From: Deltaproteobacteria bacterium
Lineage (GTDB): Bacteria; SAR324; XYD2-FULL-50-16
Direction: 5' to 3'
Length of the DNA: 64,000 bases
Assembly: GCA_029881655.1 (NCBI GenBank)
Contig: JAOUME010000001.1
Coordinates: 2,351 to 66,350, forward strand
Shown: positions 2,539-57,421 of the stretch, piece by piece
How the letters are laid out: the number at the start of each line of letters is the position of its first letter
Numbering within the stretch: position 1 is the first letter of the stretch
Translations under genes and position numbers: made by a program
The notes under the pieces: model-generated
Seen by the model: the letters and a program-made list of their open reading frames with translations, nothing else
Databases searched by the model: none
What the model was told of the DNA's origin: nothing

Positions 2539-2754
2539 TTATTTTTTGATGATAACATCGGTTGTGAGTTTGTAGATCAAAAACAAAATCGGCCAGATAT
2601 GAAAAATAAGATCGAAAATATCGATTGGTCGAGAAAGATTCCCCTGAAATAACATCCGTAATTTTTCTACCAGATGCGGTTCCGGGAAAAAAGGAGCCAA
2701 CCCAAACGCAATCGTAGCAATAATCAGAAATTTGTAAGATAAAAAGAGTTCCAA
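2539..2754 (-). CDS. Small hydrophobic hypothetical protein (71 aa).
   Basis: ORF with two predicted TM-like segments. No recognisable family. Confidence 0.25.
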   Translation of the reverse strand: MELFLSYKFLIIATIAFGLAPFFPEPHLVEKLRMLFQGNLSRPIDIFDLIFHIWPILFLIYKLTTDVIIKK

Positions 2755-2980
2755 ATTTACCTTTTTATTTAATCGGGTAAAAGCATTCTTTGAATAAGTT
2801 TATTCTCACCCAAACCAGCTTTCAGAGGCAATAAATTTCCTGTCTTTGTTCAATCCAGAATACAAAAATCAAATATATTATTCAATCTAAATATTTTTAT
2901 AATATAATATACTTAAGTGGCGATATAATTTAAAACTGTTGCGTTTTTCAAAAACGATTAAAGACCTTTGCATGGGAGAA

Positions 2981-3019
2981 AACAGAGATGGTTGTTTTAA
3001 ATGATATTATCTGATTAAA
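2981..3019. repeat. Perfect 11-bp inverted repeat (ggttgttttaa / ttaaaacaacc) with a 17-nt spacer, in a 675-bp AT-rich intergenic region.
   Basis: Direct reading of the sequence. There is no flanking U-run, so it is not a canonical terminator. Confidence 0.5.
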
Positions 3020-3445
3020 ACAACCCAAAGGAAATGCCTCATGGAGCGAAAAGTCGAGACTCAAAGTACGATCGCTGATTATTAAACCGTAGAAAACCAA
3101 TAAAATAGGCTTTTTGGAAAAGTGGATCGGTTGAAATGAGGGATTAGTCCTTAAAGTAGAAGTTAACCCAAGGTTATGGAATGAAAACTGGGCTAACTTA
3201 TTCAAAAAAGAACGGTTGAAAGTGAAAAATAGTAGAGTACAACCTCGTTCAGAAATCTTAAAATATCTTTTGTTTAAGCTGACCCAGTCGAATAACTTGA
3301 TTTATTTTTAATATAAGGTTACATGAAAAGTTAAATAAAAGCATCCTTGTCGCTCGCAAACACATTAACTTTAAAATTGACAATTTAAAAGACCAGACCT
3401 GACTCAATTCTTGAAATCATTTTAAATTAATTGGAAATCATCGCC

Positions 3446-6681: not shown

Positions 6682-7629
6682 TTAGGATTTATATTTATCG
6701 AGCCGGGCGCAAAGAGAAACAACGCCCATGGCATTGACCTCAATGTCGAAGGAAAGCACTTCCTTCGTGATAAAATCCTCTGGCACTCCCTGACTATAAA
6801 GCCAGCCAAAGATTCTTTCTTCCAAAAACAACGTTGTTTTTTCAAGCGAGCGGTGCTGTCGATAAAAAGAGAGCGCCTCAACCCCGAAAAGATCAACCCA
6901 GTCCAAGGTATGCCGTAAAAGGATCATGGCCTGATCGGTCATACCGAAATGGGTATAAAAGATTTTGAGCGGCTCGAGAGCCATTATTTTTTCTAAGGTG
7001 GACTTCATTGCCTCAGGGTCGAATTGGGTAGGCGTGGTCGCTGGTAAACATAAAGCCACTCCATATTGTTTAAATAGAGCCGCGTAAAACATCCCGCCCG
7101 CGTCGCCTGAAAAAACACCTCGGCTTTTTTGGTCATAAACCACAAAATGATGCAGAGCATGACCGGGGCTATCGAAAAACGTTAATTTTCTATTTGGTCC
7201 GATTTGGAGTTCTTCACCTTCGCCTTTAACAATAATCCGTTCTTTTTTGATCGGTAAAATCGGATCAAAATAAGACTTAAAAGCCTCCCTGTAAACCGTT
7301 TCCGCGCTTGAAATCAGTTTTGCGGGATCGCATAAATGGGCTATTGCTCTTCTATGACAAACCAGGACCGCATTTTCGCATTGACTTATTAAAAGCCCCG
7401 CTCCACCTGAGTGATCAAGGTGAATATGAGTCACAATCACAAAGTCCAGTTCACTTGGCTTAACACCCAATTCATCAAAAGCCTCTAATATCATCCCATT
7501 TGAAGGCGAAGCCCCGGTCTCGATAAAGATTTTTTTTTCAGCCAGTATTAAATAACCTGATGTCGCGAACTTCATTTTTTCATTTATCAGCTCAACACAA
7601 TAAACCGCGTCGCCCAGTTCCTCGATCAT
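6682..7629 (-). CDS. MBL-fold metallo-hydrolase.
   Basis: HIHLDHSGGAG metallo-beta-lactamase motif, 315 aa. Confidence 0.65.
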   Translation of the reverse strand: MIEELGDAVYCVELINEKMKFATSGYLILAEKKIFIETGASPSNGMILEAFDELGVKPSELDFVIVTHIHLDHSGGAGLLISQCENAVLVCHRRAIAHLCDPAKLISSAETVYREAFKSYFDPILPIKKERIIVKGEGEELQIGPNRKLTFFDSPGHALHHFVVYDQKSRGVFSGDAGGMFYAALFKQYGVALCLPATTPTQFDPEAMKSTLEKIMALEPLKIFYTHFGMTDQAMILLRHTLDWVDLFGVEALSFYRQHRSLEKTTLFLEERIFGWLYSQGVPEDFITKEVLSFDIEVNAMGVVSLCARLDKYKS

Positions 7630-7727
7630 CCTGATTGCCAGTTGATTAATATTTCAAAAGCCCTTAATCTTTGCGTAACCGCATAAACGACGGTTATTTC
7701 ATTAATCTTCTGTAACAAAAAAGAAGT

Positions 7728-8783
7728 ATGTTGCCTAGTTTTTTCAAGAAAAAGACCCTGACGGGACTTTCCAGAACCTGCGGCTGAGCGGCAAAGATCA
7801 ATCCGACAGGTCTGTCGGAAGTCTTAAAAGTGCTAACAGCTTCGAATGATCCGAATCTGCTGATCGGCTTTGAAAACGCCGATGATGCCGCGGTCTACCG
7901 TTTAACCGATGAGATCGCCATGATTCATACTATTGACTTCATCACGCCGCCAGTGGATGATCCCTACTGGTTTGGTCAGATCGCCGCGGCCAATTCCATC
8001 TCGGATATCTATTCGATGGGTGGGATACCTCTGACCGCCTTGAACGTGGTGATGTTTCCCTCAAAGATCCTGGATATGGGTGTCCTTAAAGAAATCTTAA
8101 GAGGAGGCAACGACAAAGTGATTGAAGCGGGAGCGAGCCTTGTCGGGGGTCATTCCGTGGATGACGAGGAACCGAAATTCGGGCTTTGCGTCAATGGCAA
8201 GGTGCATCCTGAAAAAATATTAACCAACAAGGGAGCACAACCGGGCGATGCCTTAATCCTAACCAAACCGCTCGGAACCGGCGTTCTTTTCAATGCGGTC
8301 CGATCAAATAAATTCGATTTTAAGAACCTGGAATCTCTAATTCTTCCGAGTGTCGCGGCCTTGAACAAAAATGCGATTGAAGCTGCCCTCGACTATCCGA
8401 TCAACGCCTGCACGGACATCACGGGATTTGGAATCATTGGTCATTGCCTGGAAGTCGCCAAAGCTAGCGCTGTTGAGATCCGGCTTTCTTTTAATAGCCT
8501 TCCGATCTATCCCGGGGCACTCGAAATGTACCAAAAAGGCGAAACGACCGGTAGCAACAAGGGGAATAAAAAACTCAGCCAGGATTTTCTACGAATCCAG
8601 CGTAAAATTAAATCGCCTCAAAAAGAGATCCTCTTTGACCCCCAGACCTCGGGCGGTCTCCTTTTTTCCCTACCTGAATTAACAGCCCAAAAGCTACTTG
8701 AGTCCCTTCATCTAAAAGGGATTCATGATGCCCGTATCATCGGAAAAATCACTCAGGGATTACCCCAAATCATCATCGAGTAA
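7728..8783 (+). CDS. selD: Selenide, water dikinase (selenophosphate synthetase) containing selenocysteine. The in-frame TGA at 7785-7787 (codon 20) is read as Sec.
   Basis: Translation from ATG 7728 gives MLPSFFKKKTLTGLSRTCG-U-AAKINPTGLSEVLKVLTASNDPNLLIG. This aligns with E. coli SelD [23 protein letters not shown], with U at the position of catalytic Cys17. Downstream is typical SelD/PurM-like (DAAVY, AAANSISDIYSMGG). An SD-like aagaag precedes the ATG. Confidence 0.85.
7803..7818 (+). other. Bacterial SECIS-like hairpin (CCGACA-GGUC-UGUCGG) 16 nt downstream of the selD UGA.
   Basis: A 6-bp stem with a GGUC apical loop, identical to the E. coli fdhF SECIS apical loop. The loop begins at +25 from the UGA, against +22 in fdhF. 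Confidence 0.6.
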
Positions 8784-8890
8784 GGCATTAAGACTGAAGA
8801 TTTTAAAACTTGTGCAGGGCTATCTACCATGATATATTTAAGCTATCATCACCGATAGGTCAGAATTGAATTTCACAGGTAAAATCTCCC

Positions 8891-30156: not shown

Positions 30157-31011
30157 ATGGCGATCATAAATCACACAATTTTAAAATGGGACGGACACAC
30201 CCACTCCGAGTTTTGCAAACATGGCAAGGCTGATAAAACCGAGGAAATGATAAAAAGAGCTATTGATCTCGGTTTTGAAAAATACAGTGTCACCGAACAC
30301 GCTCCTTTGCCAGAGGGCGCCGTTTTGGACCAGCAACTAGTAGAGGAGTATGCTTTGGATCATCGGGAGCTTCAAAGCTATTTTGAGCATGTAGGGGCTT
30401 TAAAAGAAAAATACAAAAAACAGATTCAAATTCTCTGTGGATTGGAGGTCGATTATCTCCTGGGTTGGGAAGACTATACCCGGGATTTGCTGGAAAAAAA
30501 CAGGCAACAGCTCGATGAATGTATCTTGTCTCTTCACTTTTTAACGGGAAATGGAGGCCTTCGTTGCGTCGACTGGAACCCTGAGGACTTACAAGATGGG
30601 TTGATCAAATATTACGGCTCAATTCAAAAAACCCACCTTGCCTACTGGAATACCTTGCAAAAGATGCTAACGGTCGATTTCAACTTTGACAAGAATATCC
30701 GGATCGGGCATATGGGCCTGATCAACATTTTCCAGAAACATTTTTCCTATAATTTAACTCCCGAATTATTGGCTCCTATTTTCGAAAAAACATTCCAGCT
30801 TATTCACACTAAGAACTATCAGGTGGATTACAACGTCAGTGGTAAAAGAAAATCTTACTGTAAGGAAGTCTACGTATCTGACGCCATGTTGCTTTTGTGC
30901 GAAAAATATAATATACCTGTCATCTATGGATCGGACGCTCACGCCATTGAACAAGTCGGAATGGATTATTCCTATTATGAAAAAACATTCGCAGCCCAAC
31001 TTGAAACATGA
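30157..31011 (+). CDS. PHP-family phosphoesterase (histidinol-phosphatase HisJ/K-like).
   Basis: N-terminal DGHTHSEFCKHG metal-binding motif, TEHAPL and the C-terminal SDAHA motif. Confidence 0.6.
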   Translation: MAIINHTILKWDGHTHSEFCKHGKADKTEEMIKRAIDLGFEKYSVTEHAPLPEGAVLDQQLVEEYALDHRELQSYFEHVGALKEKYKKQIQILCGLEVDYLLGWEDYTRDLLEKNRQQLDECILSLHFLTGNGGLRCVDWNPEDLQDGLIKYYGSIQKTHLAYWNTLQKMLTVDFNFDKNIRIGHMGLINIFQKHFSYNLTPELLAPIFEKTFQLIHTKNYQVDYNVSGKRKSYCKEVYVSDAMLLLCEKYNIPVIYGSDAHAIEQVGMDYSYYEKTFAAQLET

Positions 31012-31895
31012 TCTCGAAACCACCTGATTTAAATATTAAAAACATTCTCGAGTACAAAATCGAATATCTAAGATTTATCTGTGCAATCTTCATCCTTATC
31101 GCTCTGATAAGCCAGGGTAATTTTGATCCAACACCGGCTAATCTTTACTGGCCCTCAGATGGAGTTGAAAATTGGTTAAACCTGCCGGGAGCTCTTTTTG
31201 CCGGCGTTTTTTTCGATTACTTCGGTTGGATTTCAATTCTGATTTCTTTTTTAATGCTTTTTACCCAACAGCAAACCAAGATGAACTTTGGGTTCCTGAC
31301 GGTAAAACATCTTTTTGTAGTAATATTCACCTCCATGATGATTGCCTTTTTATTCCCAACCGATAACAGCTTCATAATTCCCCTCACCGGATTTATTGGT
31401 TACATGGCCAATCTGCTTTCAACCAGCACCACTTTAAGGATTATGGGGATTGTAATTTTATCTTTATCCCTGTTCTCGACTCTTAAAAATTACCGTTTCG
31501 ACCCTCTTTTTTTTTATTTGTTGGTCATTTTAGGAGGCTTCGCGCTCAAAACGTCAAAAGAGATGGCGGTCCAATCAGTTCTGCTAATAAAACAAACCGA
31601 TGAGATAACACGAACCTTTTTTTATGACTTAAGTAGAAGTTTTTCCCCAAAAGACCCCAAATCAAATAAAGGCTATCCCTCCAGTGAATCCTTTGTTAAT
31701 CAAAAGTTGGAACCGGCTCAAGTAGTGAAACAAATATTATTTTGGCCCCTTACCCTCTACAGGTCCTCTGCACAAAAAAGAGAGCAGGTCAAATCAGCTA
31801 AATTTAAAAGAAAAGGGTTTGAAAACGAAAGCGGTGACCAAAACTTAATCCAGCAGGCTTTAAAGGAGTACGAAAAAAACAACATCGGTAATTAG
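31008..31895 (+). CDS. Integral membrane protein, hypothetical.
   Basis: Multiple TM helices. A 4-nt overlap with the PHP gene. Confidence 0.4.
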   Translation: MISKPPDLNIKNILEYKIEYLRFICAIFILIALISQGNFDPTPANLYWPSDGVENWLNLPGALFAGVFFDYFGWISILISFLMLFTQQQTKMNFGFLTVKHLFVVIFTSMMIAFLFPTDNSFIIPLTGFIGYMANLLSTSTTLRIMGIVILSLSLFSTLKNYRFDPLFFYLLVILGGFALKTSKEMAVQSVLLIKQTDEITRTFFYDLSRSFSPKDPKSNKGYPSSESFVNQKLEPAQVVKQILFWPLTLYRSSAQKREQVKSAKFKRKGFENESGDQNLIQQALKEYEKNNIGN

Positions 31896-35021: not shown

Positions 35022-35774
35022 TTAAGCGGTCAGATAAGACCTCATCAGAGAACGCAACATTGCGATCGCCTTGGTACGGAGTTGAGAAGCCCTGGATTCG
35101 GTTATATCAAGTACTTCACCGATTTCCCTTAAATTAAGCTCCTCGTTGTAGTACAGTGATAGTACCAACTTTTCCTTTTCTGGCAGTTTTTCAATAGCAT
35201 CAATCATCAGTTGATTGGTTTCTTTTTCCACCAAGCTATCGAGCTGACTTGAGTCTTCTTCACAAGCTATCGTTTCTAAAACTTCCATGTGGTCATCACC
35301 GGAAATCTTATTTCCCATCTCTTCCAAAGATAAAAGAGGAATCGGCTTAGCCTTACTTAAAAAGACAGGTAATTCCTTCGGTTTGACCTCCAGCTCCTTG
35401 GCCAGTTGTTGATCGTTTGGATGGTCGATATTCTTTGAACGCAGTTTAGTATAAGCGTTTTCGAGTTTATGGGAATTATCTCTAACCGACCTTGGAATCC
35501 AATCCTTTCGTCTTAAATCATCCAGCATAGCCCCCTTAACCCTAAACTCGGCATAGGTCTTAAACTTAACGCCTTTATTCTCGTCAAATTTATCCATCGC
35601 TTCCAAGAGTCCGATCATCCCTGACTGAATCAGGTCATCCACCTGAAATTCGGAGGGCAGTCTGGCTGCTAGCCGATTGGCGATGAACTTGACCATCGGA
35701 GCGTATTCCAAGACCACATCCTCTTTGCTTGCCTTGGTTTTCTCAAGATAGGGATTATGTTTTAACGCCTGCAT
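35022..35774 (-). CDS. fliA: Flagellar RNA polymerase sigma factor (sigma-28).
   Basis: Sigma-70 regions 2 and 4 are present. It lies immediately downstream of flhF-flhG. Confidence 0.75.
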   Translation of the reverse strand: MQALKHNPYLEKTKASKEDVVLEYAPMVKFIANRLAARLPSEFQVDDLIQSGMIGLLEAMDKFDENKGVKFKTYAEFRVKGAMLDDLRRKDWIPRSVRDNSHKLENAYTKLRSKNIDHPNDQQLAKELEVKPKELPVFLSKAKPIPLLSLEEMGNKISGDDHMEVLETIACEEDSSQLDSLVEKETNQLMIDAIEKLPEKEKLVLSLYYNEELNLREIGEVLDITESRASQLRTKAIAMLRSLMRSYLTA

Positions 35775-35869
35775 GGCTAATTTTAATTAATTATTTCCGG
35801 TAATTAAATTTTAAGAATCTCGCGTTCCGCCAGAATTTCCCTGCTATTATAAAGCAAGAGCTATGCCTT

Positions 35870-36754
35870 TTAATTTTTTTTCCACTTTGCCAGTTTCTGC
35901 CAAAATCCCCCTTTGAGCCCTTCATCAAAAAAAGGCAATCCAGGATTGGCGTCAATATGTTTGGCAATAAGACCGAAGGCTTTGGTCGTAGCGGAGTTGG
36001 GCATTAAAAGACTTAAGGGCTTCTGATTCTTTACGGCTTTGGTGAAGTTGGGGTCTCTGGGAATAAATCCCATGAAGATCAAATGGATGGGTAGGAATTG
36101 ATTGAAAACGGTGGAGAGTCTCTGGTAAACTTCCTGTGCCTCTTTTAAAGTTGATTGATTAACGATCAGGTTGAATCTTTTTATCTGATATTTGGTGGCC
36201 ATGATTTTCATGAGCGCATAAGCGTCAGTCATGGCGGTCGGTTCCGAGTTGGTAACCACGCAAATCTCATCGGCAGCGGCGTTAAAACGAAGGACACTTG
36301 ATGCGATACCCGCTCCCGTGTCGATCAGGATATAGTCGTATTTTGTTTTAAGCCCGCTTAATTCCTTTAGCATACTCATCTGCTGGTTGGAGTTCAACTC
36401 TGTCATCTCCACCACTCCCGATGACGCGGGGACAATGTGTACCCCCATCGGGCCTTCAACGATAATATCGTTGATATTCTTCTTGCCGGACAAAACATCC
36501 TCGATCGTATAGGCCGGTGTCAGATTTAGCATGATATCGATATTAGCAAGTCCCAGGTCCGCGTCCAACAAAAAGACCTTCTTACCCATGCGGGAAAGTT
36601 GCATCGCCAAATTGACAACAATATTGGTCTTCCCGACTCCGCCTTTGCCGCTCGTAAAACTCAGAGATCTAACACCGTACTGGCCTTGATCGGTCTTGCG
36701 CTCCGAAATAACGTTGAATTTCTCTCTTAACGAGGCAGCTTGGTCCTTTTTCAT
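35870..36754 (-). CDS. flhG: MinD/ParA-type ATPase FlhG (YlxH). Flagellar number regulator.
   Basis: Deviant Walker A GKGGVGKT, the MinD-like fold and the position between flhF and fliA. Confidence 0.7.
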   Translation of the reverse strand: MKKDQAASLREKFNVISERKTDQGQYGVRSLSFTSGKGGVGKTNIVVNLAMQLSRMGKKVFLLDADLGLANIDIMLNLTPAYTIEDVLSGKKNINDIIVEGPMGVHIVPASSGVVEMTELNSNQQMSMLKELSGLKTKYDYILIDTGAGIASSVLRFNAAADEICVVTNSEPTAMTDAYALMKIMATKYQIKRFNLIVNQSTLKEAQEVYQRLSTVFNQFLPIHLIFMGFIPRDPNFTKAVKNQKPLSLLMPNSATTKAFGLIAKHIDANPGLPFFDEGLKGGFWQKLAKWKKN

Positions 36755-36887
36755 TGATTTAAAGTTTGATCCTCTTAAAATACGGATAATAGGCTATTAA
36801 AGCAGGAGGCCCAGAGCTGCCACCTGAAATAAGGTCGATCATGACTGCCAATCGGTGATGCTGACGCTTTCATGCTAAAATAATGAA

Positions 36888-38192
36888 TCAACTCGCCTCG
36901 TTCATCTCACCTGAAATGTTCATCAATAAATCGATCAAACGCTCCCTCGTTGCGTCTTCAATATCCTCGGGAACATTCTGACCAGTGGTCAGATATGTCA
37001 ATGGGAGTTTAAAGCGGATAGAATGATTAAAAATACTCCCATAACTCGTAGACTCATCCAGCTTGGTAAAAAGAATCCCTCCAAGTTTAAAGGTACTGAA
37101 ACGTTTTGTGATCTCGACCAGGTCACTATCCTTGGTCGTGGAGCTTAAGACCAATAGGTTGGTGAAATCATCAAAATTCTTTATAAGTTTTCTCAGGTCA
37201 GCCATCTGCGTTTCATCTCGCTGGGAGCGGCCCGCGCTGTCGATCAGAATCAGGTCCATGTCCTTAAAGCCCTCTAATGCGTCAACCAATTGCTTCTGGT
37301 CGTTAACGACTCTAAAGGGTACCTTAATAATCCTCGCGTATTCCTGAAGTTGCTGCACTGCGGCGATCCTATAGGTATCAATAGTGATCAGCCCTATTTT
37401 TAAATCAGGATTTCCGATTTTTTCCTTACTGGCGATCTTAGCCAAACTGGTTGTTTTCCCGACACCGGTCGGTCCCAAAAAAGTCAAAATACGGGGCTTG
37501 TTCTTTTTTGTTTTTTTAGTTGGTTGATCATCTATTTGAAGCACCTGCATGAACATTCTTGCCACATAGACCTTCACATATGAAAAATTGTTCAATTCCT
37601 TTCGGGGTATCTTCTTGTTAACTTCCTCAATCAGCCTTTTAGCGAACTTATCTTCCACACCATTAAAACACAGCTGTTGGTACAAAGCGACCAGGTTCTC
37701 GTGCATGTCGTCTTGTTTCAACTCTCCCGACTGGTGGATCAAGGCGTTGATCATATTTTTGAGTTCCGAGACCTCATAGCGCAGATGAGAGACAGTCGCC
37801 TCGTCATTGACTTCTCGTCTCTGGTTTTTGCTTATATCCGAAACCAGTTCCTTGAGATCCAAGATATCCCCTTGGATATTTTCTAGTGATTTCTTTTCGA
37901 CGACCCCAGTTGGCTTATTTCTTATTTCAGGTGCTTTCATGGCGATCTGGTCTAGGTAATCTTTATCAGACTTGTCATCCTGAGTGATTTTGGCCAGGGT
38001 ATTTTTACTTGAGATATAAGTTTCGTCTCTTGCCGCGGTTACCTCCAAAACAAATTTACCAAACATCCCGAAAGTACCGCTGCCTTTTCTGACTTTTCTG
38101 GTGGAAATAATTACCGCTCCTGAGCCTAACTCTTCCTTGATCATCCGGATTGCGTGCTGCATATCATCAGCGTAATATTTTTTCACTTGCAT
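36888..38192 (-). CDS. flhF: Flagellar biosynthesis SRP-type GTPase FlhF.
   Basis: SRP-GTPase motifs (LGPTGVGKTTSLAKIA, DTYR, DSAG) and operon context. Confidence 0.75.
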   Translation of the reverse strand: MQVKKYYADDMQHAIRMIKEELGSGAVIISTRKVRKGSGTFGMFGKFVLEVTAARDETYISSKNTLAKITQDDKSDKDYLDQIAMKAPEIRNKPTGVVEKKSLENIQGDILDLKELVSDISKNQRREVNDEATVSHLRYEVSELKNMINALIHQSGELKQDDMHENLVALYQQLCFNGVEDKFAKRLIEEVNKKIPRKELNNFSYVKVYVARMFMQVLQIDDQPTKKTKKNKPRILTFLGPTGVGKTTSLAKIASKEKIGNPDLKIGLITIDTYRIAAVQQLQEYARIIKVPFRVVNDQKQLVDALEGFKDMDLILIDSAGRSQRDETQMADLRKLIKNFDDFTNLLVLSSTTKDSDLVEITKRFSTFKLGGILFTKLDESTSYGSIFNHSIRFKLPLTYLTTGQNVPEDIEDATRERLIDLLMNISGEMNEAS

Positions 38193-42646: not shown

Positions 42647-43570
42647 TTAATTAATCAACGCCATTAAAATCCGCTTTGTTTTTAAATGTCTGATAAAAAA
42701 CTCAATCTCTTTTGCTCCGATATTGCCGCCCATACTGCTTAAAACCGGTAACATTACCTTCTTCGCGCTGATTCTTGGATCAATATCATAATAATAAGAC
42801 TCGGTAGCGTCAGGAATATCAAAAGGCCCAAGCTCATGCATCCCAAAATCGAAACTCAGTGAAAAACTTAAGATAATCGACGTTACGTCTTGTATCTTTC
42901 GACTCTGAAACCCAAAACGCTTTACATCACTAACCTGACCGAAACCATGGCAATTTAAGCCAGATCCCCGTCATTATTACTGGCCCATCCGCTTAGAAAT
43001 GAACCGTCAATCGCCACATATCATCTCCAGGATGAGTCCAACCTTCCATCGTCATAATTGCTACTGATCGCTACAATTCAGGTGCCCTTTTCATAAAGGA
43101 CGATGTTCTCAAGGGCAGTTCCGGTTTTACGGCAAGGGTTGAAAATTGGAAAATATCGGAATGGTACAGGTTCCCTGATGGGTCTTCAACTGTTGCACTG
43201 TAATAATAGACCGTAAGAGGATCAAGCCCTGGGAGTACAACTCATGAAGATACAAGTAGGTTGAATATAAGCTCATGGAAGGATCCACCGCCGTATAAAT
43301 CAGGCTGTATCTGCCCAATCCGTGCATAATTTCGCAACGAAATCTTGATCAGATTGGAAACGGATCACGGCTTGATGAGCCGTGATCTCCTCAACCCAGA
43401 CATCGAGAAAATCGATTTACCTGTCCGAACTATCGTTACCGCATGAGCATCCCTGGATAACTAATATCAACAACACCCAAATAATGCGGCTAACAAAAAC
43501 CTTTAAATCAAGCTTTTTTCAGATAGTTTCCCTTAATTAATTACAACAACAAACTTTTTTCTCAAACCAC
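42647..43570 (-). pseudogene. Probable decayed gene remnant. A coding-like stretch is broken into multiple short ORFs of 20-64 codons in three frames.
   Basis: About 930 bp with normal GC but no ORF longer than 66 codons. Protein-like peptides appear in shifting frames (for example LPGLDPLTVYYYSATVEDPSGNLYHSDIF and MHELGPFDIPD...). It lies between the TPR-CHAT gene and thiD. Confidence 0.3.
43363..43387. repeat. Perfect 10-bp inverted repeat (gatcacggct / agccgtgatc) with a 5-nt loop.
   Basis: Direct reading. It sits inside the ORF-poor region upstream of thiD. Confidence 0.55.
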
Positions 43571-48712: not shown

Positions 48713-49029
48713 CTTCTAAAAATATATCAAGATGAACTACATCCAGTGTCGTGGTTGTTCGCCTAGTAAAAAATCAAATAAAAATCGTCATAACCCTTTA
48801 CTTAAAAACCCCAGCTCTGATAATAAAATCGAAAATTAAATAAAAAAGCACGGATTATACAAAGAATTAATTTTACATTATTTTTATTTTAATATAAATC
48901 TAGCACATTAAAAAAAGAAAACCTAACTTTATTTGTAAGGATTGTTGACCTTTGTTTTTTATTTATGTAATTTTCCTTACATCAAAACAAATTTAATTTG
49001 TTCTTTAGGATGTGCCCTTAACTTTATAT

Positions 49030-50373
49030 ATGATCAAAATTAAAAAAGGCTTGAAGCTTCCCATCTCAGGCGAACCCCAACAGAAAATTTCCAAAGGAAA
49101 TTCAGTCAAGACCGTTGCGCTCGTAGGACCCGATTACAGGAACATGAAACCGACTATGGCTGTAAAAGTTGGCGACAAGGTTAAACTGGGACAGGTTTTG
49201 TTTGAGGATAAGAAAAATCCAGGTGTACTTTTTACGGCGCCGGGATCTGGAACCATCATAGCGGTTAACAGGGGAGAAAAAAGAGTCTTTCTTTCGGTTG
49301 TCATCCAGTTGCAAGGTGATGAGGCCGAATCCTTTGGGGTATACGAGGAAGGCAAACTTTCTCAGTTGGAGCGTGTGGAAATTCAAGATAACCTTTTGCG
49401 CTCGGGTATGTGGACGGCCTTTAAGACAAGACCCTTCAGCAAGAGTCCTCAACCCGGTTCAACCCCAAACTCGATCTTTGTAACCGCCATGGACACCAAT
49501 CCACTGGCACCCGATCCTGAGATTTTTCTATCCGAACATCCTTCGGCTTTCGTCAACGGATTGAAACTGCTTTCCAAGCTGACTGATGGAAAAACCTATC
49601 TGTGCATTGCCCCTAACAGCAACATCCCTGGAAAGGACCTGAGTACAACCGAAACGATTACTTTTTCAGGACCACATCCAGCGGGTCTTGCGGGTACCCA
49701 TATCCACCATTTAGATCCAGTGCATGCCCAAAAGACCGTCTGGTCGATCAATTACCAGGATGTCGTCGCCATCGGCTATCTTTTTACCACTGGCAAGCTC
49801 TTTGTGGAAAGGATCGTATCCTTAGCGGGCCCACAGGTAAAAAACCCCAGGCTTATAAAGACCAGAACCGGAGCCAGTATCGATGATCTTATCAAAGGGG
49901 AGACCAAAACCGGCAACAACCGGGTTATATCCGGCTCAGTTCTCTCAGGACTCACCGCCAACAAAGAACTCGCTTTCCTGGGCAGATTTCATAATCAGAT
50001 TTCTATTTTGGAAGAAGGCTTTAAAAGAGACTTCCTTGGCTGGCTGGCTCCGGGATTCAATAAATTTTCCATTAAACAAATTTTTATCTCAAAATTGTTC
50101 CCCACTAAAAAATTTAACTTCACCACTTCCGAAGAGGGAAGCACAAGAGCTATGGTTCCAATCGGCATGTATGAGAAAGTGATGCCCTTGGACATCCAGC
50201 CAACTTTTTTATTGCGTTCTTTAATCACAAAAGACACCGACAAGGCCCAGGCGCTAGGCTGTCTGGAACTGGAGGAAGAAGATCTAGGACTTTGCACCTT
50301 TGTATGTCCTGGAAAATACAACTACGGGTCTATCCTTAGGGAGAACCTCACTCAAATCGAAAGGGAAGGTTAA
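49030..50373 (+). CDS. nqrA: Na(+)-translocating NADH-quinone reductase subunit A.
   Basis: [17 protein letters not shown]-terminus typical of NqrA. Operon context. The ORF track starts at an upstream TTG at 49012. Confidence 0.85.
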
Positions 50374-51585
50374 ATGAAGTTTTTACGGGATATTTTAGAC
50401 AAGCAACACCCGAAATTCGCCAAGGGCGGTAAGCTGGAAAAGTTTTACGCTCTTTATGAAATGGCCGACACCTTCCTTTATACGCCGGGCACCGTCACCA
50501 AAGAAGCCTCTCATGTACGCGATGGCATGGACCTAAAAAGGATGATGATCACCGTGGTTGTCGCTTTGACGCCGTGTATTTTAATAGCCATTTTCAATAC
50601 CGGCTATCAGGCCAACCTGGCGATGGACCAGATGGGTGTTCCTGAGGCTTCGGGCTGGCGTGAGACAGTGATCGCTTTGCTTGGTAGCGGATACGACCCC
50701 TCCAGTATCTGGGCGAATTTTATCCATGGACTCCTTTATTTTCTACCGATCTTTCTCGTCTGCAACCTCGTTGGAGGTTTTTGGGAAGGTCTTTTCGCCT
50801 CGGTCAGGGGTCATGAGATCAACGAAGGTTTTTTGGTTACAGGGATGCTATTCCCCCTGATTCTACCCGCAACCATTCCACTTTGGCAGGTGGCGTTGGG
50901 AATCTCTTTTGGAGTGGTTTTCGGCAAAGAGATTTTCGGGGGTACGGGAAAAAACTTTTTAAACCCCGCACTTACAGGTAGGGCTTTTTTGTTTTTCGCC
51001 TATCCGGCGCAAATCTCGGGTGATCAGGTTTGGGTCGCGGTCGATGGATTCAGCGGAGCCACCCCGCTCGGAGCCGCGATAAATGGCGGTTTGCCCGCGA
51101 TAGAGAAACTTTATAGTTTTTCAGACGCGCTGATCGGCTTTATCCCCGGCTCGATCGGGGAGACATCTGCTTTGGCATGTCTATTTGGAGCCATCGTTTT
51201 GATTGTATCCGGTGTCGGCTCATGGAGAATCATGCTCAGTGTCCTTATCGGAGCCATGGGACTTTCAGCCTTATTATATTTTGTCGGTAGCAGCACCAAC
51301 CCGATGTTTTCCATTTCCCCCTTATGGCACCTGGTAATTGGCGGGTTTGCCTTTGGACTGGTTTTTATGGCAACTGATCCTGTATCCTCCGCAATGAGCG
51401 AAACTGGTCAGTGGATATACGGCATTCTCATCGGAATGATGGTCATCTTGATTCGGGTCGTTAATCCGGCCTACCCCGAAGGGATGATGCTGGCGATCCT
51501 CTTCGGCAATATTTGCGCTCCGGTAATCGATTATTATGTCGTCAAGGCCAACATCAAACGAAGGAAAATCAGAAATGCCCAATGA
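50374..51585 (+). CDS. nqrB: Na(+)-NQR subunit B.
   Basis: Polytopic membrane protein with the conserved FMN-attachment region (FSGATPLG) and NqrB/RnfD-like TM topology. Confidence 0.85.
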
Positions 51586-52344
51586 TTCCATCATAAAAAC
51601 CATCATCGTCGCATTTCTTCTTTGCGTCTTTTGCTCTGTTTTGGTTTCTAGTTCCGCAATCTACCTGAAACCGCTTCAGGAAAAAAACAAGCTTTTAGAA
51701 ACCAAAAAGAATATCCTTATCGCCTCGGGGCTAATGGAAGAGGGCAAAACCATCGAAGAGATGTTAAACAAATAACGGTCAGGATCATCGACCTTAAGAC
51801 CGGAGAGTTCGACGATGAGATCGATCCCAGCCAGTACGACGTAAAAAAAGCCATTAAAGACCCGCTTTTGGCTTATAAAATACCAAAAGATTTGGATTTG
51901 GCGAAAATCAAGCGAAGAGCAAAGTCGGTACCCGTTTATCTGGTGATGAAGGAAGATCAAATCGACACTGTCATTCTGCCCATCTACGGCAAGGGTCTTT
52001 GGTCTACCATGTACGCCTTTTTGGCTTTGGAAGGTGATACCAATACCGTCAAGGGACTATCCTTCTACGAGCACGCTGAGACTCCTGGACTTGGGGGCGA
52101 GGTTGATAACGAGCTTTGGAAGAAGTCATGGAAGGGCAAAAAGGTCTTTAGCCCCGACTGGGCACCGGTCATTGATCTTCCCAAAGCGAAAGTCGATCCA
52201 CAAAGACCCGAGGCTATTCACCAGGTCGATGGATTATCAGGGGCGACTTTAACGACCAGAGGAGTAAAAAATCTATTACGCTACTGGCTTGGAGAAAACG
52301 GCTACGGCCCCTTCCTTGCCAATCTAAGACAACAAGGAGTCTAA
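51575..52344 (+). CDS. nqrC: Na(+)-NQR subunit C, interrupted by an apparent 1-nt deletion/frameshift near 51770-51776.
   Basis: The N-terminal part (TM helix, [23 protein letters not shown]) is in frame 2 and stops at 51773. The continuation ([13 protein letters not shown]...[17 protein letters not shown]-binding SGAT motif) is in frame 1. Both halves align to Vibrio NqrC when joined with one extra nucleotide. Confidence 0.75.
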
Positions 52345-52345
52345 T

Positions 52346-52969
52346 ATGATCAAGCCCAAAAACGTTTTATTAGATCCCATTTTTAAAAATAATCCGATCG
52401 CGCTTCAGGTTTTGGGTATCTGTTCTGCCCTGGCGGTTACCAGCAAGCTGGAGACCGTAATCGCCATGTCGTTTGCGCTGATGTTCGTCACAACTTTTTC
52501 CAACATCGGTGTCAGTCTGATCAGAAACCATATTCCAAACAGCATCCGCATCATCGTGCAAATGACCATCATCGCTTCACTGGTTATCATTGTCGATCAG
52601 GTCCTTAAGGCCTATGCGTTCGGCATTAGCAAACAACTTTCGGTCTTCGTGGGTCTCATCATCACCAACTGCATCGTCATGGGAAGGGCCGAGGCCTTCG
52701 CTATGAAAAATGGGGTGGGATTGAGTCTGCTTGATGGTCTGGGCAATGCCTTGGGCTATAGTCTGATTCTGTTTGTAGTGGGCTTTATCAGGGAGTTGAC
52801 CGGTTCAGGTAAATTATTGGGATTTAATATTTTAACACCTATCACCGAGGCTGGTTGGTACCAGCCTAACGGCTTGATGCTCTTGCCTCCAAGCGCTTTT
52901 TTTCTCATCGGGATCTTTATTTGGATTCTAAGAAGCTGGAAAAAGGATCAAGTCGAAAAGGACAACTAA
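52346..52969 (+). CDS. nqrD: Na(+)-NQR subunit D.
   Basis: NqrD/RnfA-like six-TM protein. Operon position. Confidence 0.8.
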
Positions 52970-52972
52970 GCT

Positions 52973-53584
52973 ATGTTAGAAACCTATTTAAATCTTTTAG
53001 TACAGTCCATCTTCATCGAGAATATGGCACTGGCCTTTTTCTTGGGGATGTGCACCTTTTTGGCCGTCTCCAAGAAAGTCGAAACGGCTTTGGGTCTTGG
53101 AATCGCGGTTGTCGTTGTCCAAACGATCACCATTCCCGCCAACTATTTGATTTACGCCTACATCTTAAAAGAGGGTGCCTTGAGTTGGGCCGGCATGCCC
53201 AATACCGACTTAAGCTTTCTAGGTTATATCAGCTATATCGGTGTCATCGCGGCTATGGTTCAGATTTTGGAGATGGTGCTGGATAAGTACTTCACGTCTC
53301 TTTATAATGCGTTAGGGATTTTTTTACCATTAATTACGGTGAACTGCGCCATCTTGGCGGGCTCCCTGTTTATGGTCGAGAGAGATTATAATTTTCCAGA
53401 AAGCGTGGTCTACGGGATTGGGAGCGGCGCAGGATGGGCCATCGCCATTGTCGTTTTAGCTGGAATCCGCGAAAAAATGAAATACAGCGATGTACCGGAC
53501 GGCCTAAAAGGGCTGGGAATCACCTTTATCACCGTTGGACTGATGGCGATGGCTTTTATGTCGTTTTCAGGAATCCAGCTTTAA
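52973..53584 (+). CDS. nqrE: Na(+)-NQR subunit E.
   Basis: NqrE/RnfE-like membrane protein. Operon position. Confidence 0.8.
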
Positions 53585-53674
53585 GCTTTATCATCGATTT
53601 GAGTCTATATTATATTTTAATGAGCTAAGACTTTTATTAAGTTGCTTGTTTACTGCCAATAAAGAGATTTTGTA

Positions 53675-54904
53675 ATGACCGAAATATTATTAGGAGTTGC
53701 CTTTTTTACCGGTATCGTACTGAGCCTTGTTCTGGTCATCTTGTTCGCGAAATCAAGGCTTGTGAGCACTGGCAAGGTCAAGATCCTGATCAACAACGAT
53801 GAATCCAGCGCAATCGAAGTTCCAGCCGGAGATAAACTTTTAGGGGCTTTGGCCGGGCAGAAAATCTTTTTATCATCGGCCTGTGGCGGCGGCGGAACCT
53901 GTGGACAGTGCAGGGCCAAGGTCTTCGAGGGTGGTGGAGATATCTTGCCGACCGAACAAAGCCTGATCACCAAGAAAGAGGCACTAGAGGGTGAGAGACT
54001 CGCCTGTCAGGTGGCGGTCAAAAGGGACATGAAAATCGAGGTTCCCGCAGAGGTATTCTCAGTCAAGAAATGGTCCTGCAAAGTCGAATCGAATCACAAT
54101 GTCGCGACCTTCATCAAAGAATTGGTCATAAAGCTCCCGCAAGGAGAGAACGTCGATTTTAGAGCTGGTGGCTACATCCAGATCGAATGCCCGCCGCACG
54201 ACCTAAAATACGCTGATTTTATAGTTGAGGATGAATACCGGGGCGACTGGGACAAATTTAACCTCTGGAAATACCAGTCCCATGTAACCGAAGACGTAAT
54301 TCGCGCCTACTCCATGGCAAACTACCCTGAAGAAAAGGGCCTAATCAAGCTGAACGTGCGTATCGCGTCTCCGCCCCCAGGCGCTCCAGACCATATTCCT
54401 CCCGGAATCATGTCCTCCTATATTTTCAACTTGAAGCCAGGAGACGATGTTATTATATCCGGACCCTTCGGTGAGTTTTTCGCCAAGGAAACTGAGGCCG
54501 AGATGGTATTCATTGGGGGTGGAGCCGGCATGGCACCCATGCGCTCTCATATCTTTGATCAACTAAGAAGAATCAACAGCAATAGAAAAATCACCTTTTG
54601 GTACGGCGCAAGAAGCTTAAGAGAGATGTTTTACGTGGAAGACTTCGATGAACTGCAAAAAGAAAACAAAAACTTCACTTGGCACGTCGCGCTGTCCGAC
54701 CCACAGCCTGAGGACAACTGGAAAGGCTACACTGGTTTTATCCACAATGTGCTTTATGAATACTATCTCAAAGACCACCCCGCGCCAGAAGACTGCGAGT
54801 ACTATATGTGCGGCCCCCCCATGATGAACAAGGCGGTAATAGACCTTTTGGAAAGTCTTGGAGTAGAAAAAGATAACATTTTGTTGGATGACTTTGGTGG
54901 TTAA
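53675..54904 (+). CDS. nqrF: Na(+)-NQR subunit F (2Fe-2S ferredoxin, FAD and NADH binding).
   Basis: An N-terminal TM helix, the [10 protein letters not shown] 2Fe-2S motif, an FAD RAYSMAN motif and a NAD-binding GGGAGMAPM. Confidence 0.9.
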
Positions 54905-55958
54905 GATCCATTCCCCGCTTACCAAGCCCATCTTATCTCTTACCTTACTATTAAGCCTCTTTTTTTCGGCTGGTTGCGAAAATTCAAATAGAAAACCGGA
55001 ATATCAAGTTATATCGGGCAGAACCATGGGTACCAGCTACCAGGTCAAGCTCGCCGGAAACAATCTTCCTCATAAAACACAACCGATTAAAAAGGAAATT
55101 GATTTGCGGTTAGAGCGCATCAATCAGCTGATGTCGACCTATTTTCCCGATTCTGAGTTAAACAGGCTTAACCGAACTGACAGCAAGTGGTTTCCGGTCT
55201 CCAAAGAAACCTATTTTGTTATCGGAAACGCCCAAAGGATAAGCCGAGACAGCGGAGGAGCCTTCGATATTACGGTCGGGGCTTTGGTAAATTTGTGGGG
55301 ATTCGGTAACAAAATAAGAGCCGATCAGATCCCCGATGAAAAAGCCATTTCAACTTTGAAAAATAAATTGGGTTATGATAAGATTATGTTAAACCCCGAT
55401 GAGCTTCTCATTGGGAAAAAACACCCCGAAATCACCCTTGATCTTTCGGCCATTGCCAAAGGTTACGCTGTTGACTCTGTAGCTGCCCTGTTAGAGAAAA
55501 GGGGCATTTTAGACTATATGGTCGAGATCGGCGGAGAAATTAAGGCCAGGGGCTATAAAGCTGAGAACCACCCTTGGGTTCTGGCAATCGAAAAACCGAT
55601 TCTCGAATCCAGAGAGGTTCAGAGACTTGTTTCTCTAAACGATCAAGGGATGGCGACTTCAGGGGATTACCGTAACTATTTTGAAAAAGACGGGGTAAGA
55701 TATTCACATAGCATCAATCCAAATACGGCGAGGCCCATCACCCACAAACTGGCATCGGTCAGCGTGATCAACCCTTCGACAATGATCGCTGACGGATGGG
55801 CAACCGCTTTGATGGTTCTGGGACCTGAGAAGGGTTATGAAATCGCTTTGAGAGAAAAACTCGCTGCTTATTTTATTTACAGGGAAAAAGACGGATTCGT
55901 TGAAAAGTATACCCCTGATTTCGAGAAATATTTTATCGAAACCAAAACAAGACTTTAA
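54888..55958 (+). CDS. apbE: FAD:protein FMN transferase (flavin transferase ApbE), probable lipoprotein.
   Basis: ApbE family core ([19 protein letters not shown]). A signal peptide ending in FSAGC. It overlaps the nqrF stop. Confidence 0.8.
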
Positions 55959-55964
55959 GCGTTT

Positions 55965-56153
55965 ATGAGTACCTTTATCGCCGCGTTGATCATAATTGGC
56001 TTAGCCATGCTGGCTATGTCCGTTGGCATGATCCTAAGCAATAAATGCATTCAGGGTTCTTGCGGCAACAAGAATCTCCTGGCGAAAATCCAAGGGACTT
56101 CCGCTTGCGATTTTTGCGATAAGAAACAAGACTGCTCTGAAAGCGCGTCCTGA
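55965..56153 (+). CDS. nqrM: (Na+)-NQR maturation protein NqrM.
   Basis: 62 aa with a single TM helix followed by a Cys cluster (CIQGSCGN...CDFCDKK), which is the NqrM/DUF539 pattern. It is located directly after apbE. Confidence 0.65.
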   Translation: MSTFIAALIIIGLAMLAMSVGMILSNKCIQGSCGNKNLLAKIQGTSACDFCDKKQDCSESAS

Positions 56154-56195
56154 GACTTTAATTGGACAACTTGGTTGAGCAAAGTTGCGCCGGAT

Positions 56196-56477
56196 TCATT
56201 GAACCTGCCCGGTAATCTCAAAAAGGTGATAAACCGGATTTTTTGGCGCGATCTGAAAAGAACCCAGATACCACAGATTGTTTTTATCCTCCTGGATCAA
56301 CTCACCGGCAACAGCAAACCTAAATTTTCTGCTTTCCACTTCTACCCCCGGCTCAATCAGAACATGAAGTTGAGGGGTCTGGTCATAAAATTCCAGCGAT
56401 AAAATCTCCGCGCCTTTTGGCATCGAGAGCTCAAAGCTGTCCCTGAGTTGCAAATCAAATTTCAGAGTTTTGACCAT
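56196..56477 (-). CDS. Hypothetical protein (93 aa).
   Basis: An ORF with reasonable composition. No family recognised. Confidence 0.3.
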   Translation of the reverse strand: MVKTLKFDLQLRDSFELSMPKGAEILSLEFYDQTPQLHVLIEPGVEVESRKFRFAVAGELIQEDKNNLWYLGSFQIAPKNPVYHLFEITGQVQ

Positions 56478-57007
56478 AATGTTATCCGATTGCTATAGTG
56501 GACCCATTTGTCCAGACAATTTTTTGTTGAGTCATATTCCTTTACTTGATCTATTTTAAGCTGCTTTTTTATCTCTTCTTTCGATAAATTTCCAACGGTT
56601 TTTTGTAGATCAGGACCGAGTGAAATCGGTTGAAGTCATAAAAGAGCATCGAAGCGTTCTTAAAATCAATTATTTCCAATGATTGAGGCTACTCGGGGTG
56701 GCTTCATGCTTGCTGGCCAACCGGGCTTGGGACATTTCCCCCGATAATTGTTCCAAAACTATCTTGGTTTTGAACTCGAGACTGAAATTTAGTTCCTTTT
56801 TTACTCATTTTCCTCTTGAATTGAAGTTTGATTTAACTATTCAGAAATGACAACCAATGGAAAAACTGTTTGAATTTATAGTTCCATTATACCAATTCCA
56901 TGATTGATTAGATCGATCCTATTTGCTAATAATAAGTTTGAGGAAGCGATCCGACTTGTAAAATCGGCATAACCGTTTTTTAAAAATACTTCTAGAAATC
57001 GAGCTTT

Positions 57008-57358
57008 ATGGAAAACCACCGTCAAGTCCAGAGAAATTTTCTTAAATACTACCTGGACGTGAAAGAGGAACCGGAAGGTGAAGTGATCGGCCAACTTTAC
57101 GATCTCAGCGACAAGGGGATGATGTTATTAAGCGAGCGGTCCTTAGAGGAAAATATGGAAATGGATTTCTGGATCGGTTTAAAGGAAAACGTTAACGGCA
57201 AGAACATGATCCGCGGCAGGGCAAAGAGCCTTCGCTGCGTCAAAGACATGGATTTCGACAAGCACCGGATCGGGTTTCAATTTATCGAAATCTCCAGAGA
57301 AGATACCGAAACGATCAACCAACTGATCGAACGATTCGGCTACAACATCAATCTATAA
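57008..57358 (+). CDS. PilZ-domain c-di-GMP-binding protein.
   Basis: The RxxxR (RQVQR) and DxSxxG (DLSDKG) motifs with correct spacing. 116 aa. Confidence 0.65.
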   Translation: MENHRQVQRNFLKYYLDVKEEPEGEVIGQLYDLSDKGMMLLSERSLEENMEMDFWIGLKENVNGKNMIRGRAKSLRCVKDMDFDKHRIGFQFIEISREDTETINQLIERFGYNINL

Positions 57359-57421
57359 GAAGAGTTTGTTTATTTTAGCCCGACCGGGGGCATGAAACGG
57401 TCGCAGAGAGTCTATGGAAAC

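Follow-up and report, generated by a model that had tools for sequence, protein, structure and literature searches.

Activity of SelD requires a Gly-rich loop that carries Sec or Cys at position 17 and Lys at position 20, as mutants of the Escherichia coli enzyme have established. Sec is found in H. influenzae SelD, and natural Aquifex SelD has Sec at the position equivalent to the UGA described below and was crystallised as a Cys mutant. The SECIS of E. coli fdhF binds SelB partly through a bulged U in its upper stem. No bacterial selenoprotein families are more widespread than FdhA and SelD, of which SelD ranks second, and every organism with selenoproteins has one or both of them; SelD is listed for each of the deltaproteobacterial selenoproteomes described (Syntrophobacter, Geobacter, Desulfovibrio, Desulfotalea) (PMC1794560; PMC9312934). 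According to the published bSECIS model, as given in a 2026 review, the loop has 3-9 nt, the upper stem 4-16 bp and the first two loop positions a G, while the distance from UGA to loop is 16-37 nt and the MFE is <= -7.5 kcal/mol (PMC13188914). The wrong annotation of selenoprotein genes as truncated products has been documented as a general problem (PMC13188914).

Here we describe a selD gene in a 64-kb stretch of DNA from an uncultivated deltaproteobacterium-like MAG, the whole of which was analysed and is called the window throughout. The gene, at 7728-8783, very probably encodes a 351-residue SelD whose catalytic residue 20 is Sec, its UGA codon being read via a SECIS. A Sec-type SelD is already well known in kind and adds nothing to the selenoprotein repertoire or to the mechanism of Sec insertion; the practical value of the analysis is correct annotation, in that restoring the first 34 codons gives back the true enzyme. 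The features of the locus are the following:

7713..7715, plus strand: TAA stop in frame with the ATG at 7728-7730, upstream boundary of the frame
7728..8783, plus strand: full-length selD CDS, 351 codons and a TAA stop (8781-8783), with codon 20 a UGA very probably read as Sec
7785..7787, plus strand: UGA, the putative Sec codon of residue 20, at the position of Cys17 in E. coli SelD
7794..7825, plus strand: predicted bSECIS element, with lower stem 7794-7798/7821-7825, upper stem 7802-7808/7813-7819 and loop GGUC at 7809-7812
7830..8783, plus strand: shortened 317-aa ORF as reported by gene callers, with a GTG start and without the catalytic Sec and Lys loop

The selD reading frame and its product

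When the sequence was re-read and translated, the ATG at 7728, the TAA at 7713, the TGA at 7785-7787, the hairpin at 7802-7819 and the GTG at 7830 were all found exactly where a first-pass annotation of the same DNA had put them. Because the in-frame TAA bounds the frame upstream, ATG 7728 is its first possible start. Which of ATG 7728 and TTG 7731 serves as the start is uncertain, since only 1 nt separates a Shine-Dalgarno-like GAAG from ATG 7728. Among 83 homologous copies, the first ATG stands 17 codons before the TGA in 55, often behind a good Shine-Dalgarno sequence, and in the window it stands 19 codons before it. The predicted peptide across the UGA codon is TCG-U-AAKINPTGLSEVLK.

That annotation had taken the product for SelD, and comparison of the 7728-8783 translation with SelD families agreed: if the TGA is taken as sense, the frame gives a full-length 351-residue selenophosphate synthetase. 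In profile searches, the TIGR00476 selD model scored 354.4 bits against a cutoff of 125, with a match starting at residue 11, upstream of GTG 7830, and NF002098 scored 304.1 bits against a cutoff of 299. Both AIRS domains were detected, PF00586 in the N-terminal part (4.1e-25) and PF02769 in the C-terminal part (6e-16), and the matches to the solved structures 2yye (1.7e-64) and 3u0o (5.2e-60) begin at residues 11-12. Judged by these matches the product is unambiguously SelD (selenide, water dikinase), predicted to carry out ATP-dependent selenophosphate synthesis.

Alignment to E. coli SelD (PDB 3u0o) placed residue 20 on Cys17 and K23 on Lys20, so that the UGA falls at the catalytic cysteine, and the residue-for-residue correspondence claimed for the two N-termini held (window 'ltglsrtcg-C-aakinp' against 'ltqyshgag-Cys17-gcK20isp'). 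The E. coli enzyme has the same fold, with N- and C-terminal AIRS domains, an aligned N-terminal loop and the Lys20 in place. In contrast, it has Cys, encoded by TGC, where the window gene has UGA/Sec, and because of this replacement it needs no SECIS; it also carries Cys19 at +2, whereas the window SelD has a Cys at -2 (CGU motif). The best solved structure was that of Aquifex aeolicus SelD (2yye, 2zod, 2zau), whose RSSG-C-AAKVGP aligns with RTCG-U-AAKINP of the window protein in an alignment of 315 residues with several small gaps; this protein comes from a different phylum and is without the Cys at -2. To include the Gly-rich loop with Sec/Cys and Lys, the frame must be read from 7728 and across the TGA.

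The forecast that gene callers would shorten selD proved right. The database protein for this locus (P0001) has 317 aa and is 100% identical to the truncated ORF, and an exact look-up of the full-length product with X at residue 20 found no entry in the protein collection. Most database homologues have 307-330 aa and are without the catalytic loop. The entry for Geothermobacter hydrogeniphilus SelD (P0037, NCBI/UniRef) begins 'MGPAVL', just after the Sec, and the 328-329-aa entries of the SelD clade begin 'MGP...' directly after the Sec codon (entries viewed: P0037, P0006, P0002 and P0086).

These short entries could also be taken at face value, with the TGA as a true stop, a 19-residue upstream peptide that may or may not be made, and a shorter SelD translated from GTG 7830. 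The 317-aa product is indeed the one found in the mechanical ORF list and in the public database, and TGA serves as a normal stop in 8 of the 50 window ORFs. However, this product would be without the Gly-rich loop that bears Sec/Cys17 and Lys20, and the SelD family model aligns, as described above, from before GTG 7830. In addition, across ~157 homologues the 34 codons preceding GTG 7830 show higher conservation than the remainder of the protein, and GTG 7830 itself is not conserved as a start, other residues being found there. A genuine stop at 7785-7787 is thus very unlikely, and the reading of the UGA as a Sec codon is kept in what follows.

A hairpin downstream of the UGA codon

Within the selD CDS, in a segment that also codes for N-P-T-G-L-S-E, the upper stem CCGACA (7803-7808) / UGUCGG (7813-7818) is lengthened by a U7802-A7819 pair. 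This stem starts 16 nt after the TGA, the hairpin with its added pair lying 14-15 nt downstream, and the TGA-to-loop distance is 21 nt. A folding check supported the hairpin: 51 nt beginning at the TGA form a two-tier stem-loop of -16.4 kcal/mol (z = -2.7, with 1 of 200 shuffles as good), and the bare hairpin has -9.2 kcal/mol. With a loop of 4 nt, a stem of 7 bp, GG at the start of the loop, a spacing of 21 nt and an energy of -9.2 to -16.4 kcal/mol, the element falls within the bSECIS model on every count. Results of a scan of the window showed that 14 of its 2560 TGA trinucleotides (0.55%, both strands) precede a contiguous hairpin that has bSECIS geometry and is equally stable, and that 43 TGA sites reach -7.5 kcal/mol; only the selD site has both a long open frame on either side and homology. 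Rfam returned nothing relevant, either for the whole window at the gathering threshold or for 7600-8000 at E <= 10. A match to a bacterial SECIS would not be expected at the hairpin, the element being short and variable.

The GGUC loop had been likened to the apical loop of the E. coli fdhF SECIS, and reading that element from NC_000913 showed that the two loops are the same. The fdhF SECIS likewise lies directly 3' of the UGA within the CDS, with GGUC closed by an A-U and then a C-G pair, and the octamer CAGGUCUG is common to both. The distance from UGA to loop is 18 nt in fdhF and 21 nt in the window, the lower stems are unrelated and, unlike the fdhF SECIS, the 7-bp upper stem of the window hairpin is without a bulge.

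Conservation of the UGA codon and of the hairpin

Homologues were collected from one genome per species. The best 80 loci, belonging to Desulfobacterota, Thermodesulfovibrionales/Nitrospirota, one Acidobacteria MAG and others, contained 83 SelD copies of 61-69% identity, and no SelD relative above 71% identity was found in the genome or metagenome contigs scanned. TGA occupied the Sec codon in 83 of 83 copies from these best 80 genome loci. The same codon was present in 74 further metagenomic copies, which came from 73 of 80 metagenomic loci, the remaining 7 giving no match to the strict motif used. Not one of the retrieved copies (83 genomic and 74 metagenomic) had TGC or TGT at this position. 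The peptide around the UGA is nearly invariant, KKKTLTGLARTCG-U-AAKIGP, which can be written KKKTLTGL(A/S)RTCG-U-AAKIGP. Far from being non-coding in relatives, the region 7728-7829 is coding in them, and no other part of the protein is as well conserved over the ~157 homologous copies.

The Sec-SelD proteins of Desulfobacterota and Nitrospirota (for example those of Geothermobacter hydrogeniphilus, Desulfopila aestuarii, Desulfosediminicola flagellatus and Candidatus Electrothrix; loci L012, L073, L043, L020 and L030) share with the window the UGA codon, the peptide and the register of the hairpin, whose pattern is UCCGNCN/loop/NGNCGGA. The window SelD differs from them by two extra N-terminal residues and by AAKINPTGLSEVL in place of AAKIGPTDLSDAL. 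Two of the loci carry tandem selD pairs, ~1.3 kb apart: L017:1754 and L017:3049 in a Thermodesulfobacteriota single-cell genome, and L023:1717 and L023:3018 in a Desulfobacterales MAG. Both copies of each pair have their own in-frame TGA and SECIS hairpin.

A single-base change is enough to turn TGY into TGA, and the codon might on that account be an assembly or sequencing error of a TGC or TGT Cys codon, or the gene a pseudogene. The JGI, ENA (ERZ27296367) and Logan (SRR7132271) assemblies are, however, 100% identical over 271 nt that take in the promoter region together with TGA and hairpin. Identity between independent assemblies means that the TGA did not arise by faulty assembly or sequencing. 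The rest of the selD frame is intact, all retrieved homologues have TGA and none TGY at the Sec codon, and the SECIS that follows the TGA is under synonymous-site selection (see below). We therefore give next to no probability to an error or to a pseudogene, and hold to an intact gene with a genuine TGA codon.

The hairpin was then compared across the 83 SelD copies, aligned without gaps over 57 nt from the TGA onwards (alignment A2). The stem occupies the same columns of A2 in 83 of 83 copies. Standard pairs filled 96.5% of the pair cells, compared with 20-48% when the 3' partners were slid by 1-3 columns. Changes on both sides were seen at three stem pairs (U-A to C-G; C-G to U-A; A-U to U-G or C-G). 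None of 500 shuffles of A2 reached the covariation score, although much of this signal is owed to a few lineages and the possible changes are limited by coding constraint. In Thermodesulfovibrionales, the change of pair 22-31 from A-U to U-G needs a Thr to Ser replacement coupled with a Ser to Ala one. The first base of the loop, G, is invariant in all copies, and the lower stem is not conserved among the homologues. The loop of the window, GGUC with an A-U closing pair (A2 columns 24-29), occurs in none of the ~157 homologous copies; these have a G.U closing pair and loops such as GAUC, GCUC, GUUC, GACC and similar.

Because the peptide encoded by the hairpin is itself conserved, synonymous sites constitute the more telling test. 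In the stem, Pro was encoded by CCG in 81 of 83 copies, compared with 36% elsewhere in the same genes; Ser was encoded by UCG in 77 of 77, against 17.5% elsewhere; and Leu was encoded by CUG or UUG in 83 of 83, against 50% elsewhere. This codon fixation holds across selD genes of 43-67% GC. Such fixation of synonymous stem positions shows that selection acts on the RNA.

These data also bear on the proposal that the hairpin is no SECIS at all, and is either a terminator of the minus strand or a by-product of the conserved peptide. A consensus scan marked 7819-7802 on the minus strand as terminator-like, a call that the palindromic stem accounts for and that we rejected. The conserved encoded peptide PTxLS would on its own preserve part of the hairpin sequence. 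However, no minus-strand gene ends upstream of the hairpin, the site lies within selD and the T-run is poor (TTGATCTTTG); conservation of the peptide, for its part, explains neither the fixed third codon positions nor the paired T to S and S to A changes at pair 22-31. An unrelated element is accordingly extremely unlikely here, and we continue to treat the hairpin as the SECIS of selD.

It could be argued that the UGA is translated as an amino acid other than Sec, either under a reassigned code (Trp or Gly) or by SECIS-independent near-cognate readthrough (Cys or Trp). One database homologue, the ENA entry P0086, is translated with a W at the Sec site, and Cys can functionally replace Sec in SelD, as it does in E. 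coli. The W of P0086 is, however, a gene-calling artefact, and suggests a code-4 gene call in which UGA was taken as Trp. The 50 window ORFs end in 29 TAA, 13 TAG and 8 TGA stops, the latter terminating Rho, NqrB and six other well-supported ORFs; because TGA ends these 8 of 50 ORFs, UGA is not reassigned. In addition, a conserved SECIS hairpin would serve no purpose under non-Sec decoding. Translation of the codon as another amino acid is extremely improbable, and Sec is retained as the residue at position 20.

Probable selenocysteine use in the host and other features of the window

On the E. coli paradigm, translation of selD would begin at ATG 7728, possibly at TTG 7731, and the GG(U) of the hairpin loop would recruit SelB-GTP-Sec-tRNA(Sec) at UGA 7785-7787. 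This complex would outcompete RF2, and Sec would be inserted into the Gly-rich loop in place of termination. By analogy with the known system, we infer both the binding of SelB and the actual incorporation of Sec (selenium) at the UGA. Sec-20 and Lys23 would then carry out selenophosphate synthesis, and the selenophosphate would act as the Se donor for Sec-tRNA synthesis. Expression of SelD would depend on SelD itself, because its product is needed for Sec-tRNA; this self-dependence of Sec-type SelD has long been noted.

A Sec-requiring SelD cannot be made without selA, selB and selC, and for this reason we strongly infer that these genes lie elsewhere in the genome. In the 64-kb window, ARAGORN found no tRNA genes, hence no tRNA-Sec, and Pfam and NCBIfam profiles detected no SelA, SelB, SelU/YbbB or YqeB/C among the 50 ORFs; the 4.6 kb upstream of the window, present in the ENA and Logan contigs, contained neither tRNA-Sec nor selA, selB or any other selenium gene. 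Inspection of TGA-joined frames and of TGA sites followed by hairpins gave no credible further selenoprotein in the window. The ORF 56196-56477(-) extended through its TGA was discarded because it continues into junk, the TGA sites at 8867, 20904, 24775, 33507 and 51583 were ordinary gene boundaries, and the one at 49461(-) was antisense to nqrA.

The selD gene marks this MAG as a probable selenocysteine user, and other UGA-containing genes in its genome are therefore likely to be mis-called too. Apart from a 100% identical NCBI protein of a deltaproteobacterial MAG, the closest GuaA relatives were from MAGs (72%), SAR324 (70%) and Candidatus Lambdaproteobacteria (68%). Since these identities reach at most 72%, the host is assigned, on protein similarity, to a sparsely sampled lineage that is not Desulfobacterota, SAR324 and Candidatus Lambdaproteobacteria being its closest named relatives. 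In a 2016 survey, two single-cell genomes of SAR324 appear among the 'orphan SelD' organisms, for which no selenium-utilisation trait is known (PMC5029168). The presence of a Sec-type SelD in a lineage related to SAR324 implies that the Sec trait occurs there, and hints that missed UGA genes or incomplete genomes may lie behind some of the 'orphan SelD' calls in the SAR324 group. That the host possesses the Sec machinery with SelD as its only or nearly only selenoprotein is unlikely. Were it so, the main reason for keeping the Sec trait would be to produce the very enzyme that supplies it, a self-referential loop, and this too would point to orphan calls made in error.

The neighbours of selD are of a housekeeping kind: serA, serC, proC, a divergent MBL-fold hydrolase, an AmmeMemoRadiSam radical-SAM enzyme and leuA. 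Other features of the window that are mentioned below are:

2192-2536: ArsR-type HTH gene, preceding a gap of ~900 nt before serA
35022-38192: flhF/flhG/fliA-like genes
49012-55958: Na+-NQR operon
55965-56153: Cys-rich 62-aa membrane ORF, putatively NqrM-like by its position
56196-56477, minus strand: 93-aa ORF
57008-57358: 116-aa ORF

Several stretches had few or no convincing genes. The ~900 nt between the ArsR-type gene and serA (2540-3430) contain no convincing ORF, the sole candidate being a 71-aa hydrophobic ORF at 2539-2754(-); Rfam gave no match in 2540-3430, and the ENA and Logan gene calls are also empty there. The 1.4 kb that follow the nqrA-F/apbE operon (55959-57421) hold only small ORFs, among them the three in the list above. 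At 31008-31895, a 295-aa ORF matches only the 4TM N-terminal region of FtsK/SpoIIIE (PF13491), and no FtsK/SpoIIIE motor domain was seen nearby; a 300-nt gap and rho follow. The segment 33558-34936 contains rpmE (L31) and then RF1, whose true start is probably ATG 33857. An RF2 programmed frameshift considered at 33.8 kb was rejected, the protein being RF1 by its PST and GGQ motifs. Finally, the 935-nt gap between thiD and a gene for a 1181-aa TPR-CHAT protein contains, at ~43371-43397, a very stable 12-bp hairpin, GGAUCACGGCUU-GAU-GAGCCGUGAUCU, of -18.4 kcal/mol, which is probably the terminator of the TPR-CHAT gene.
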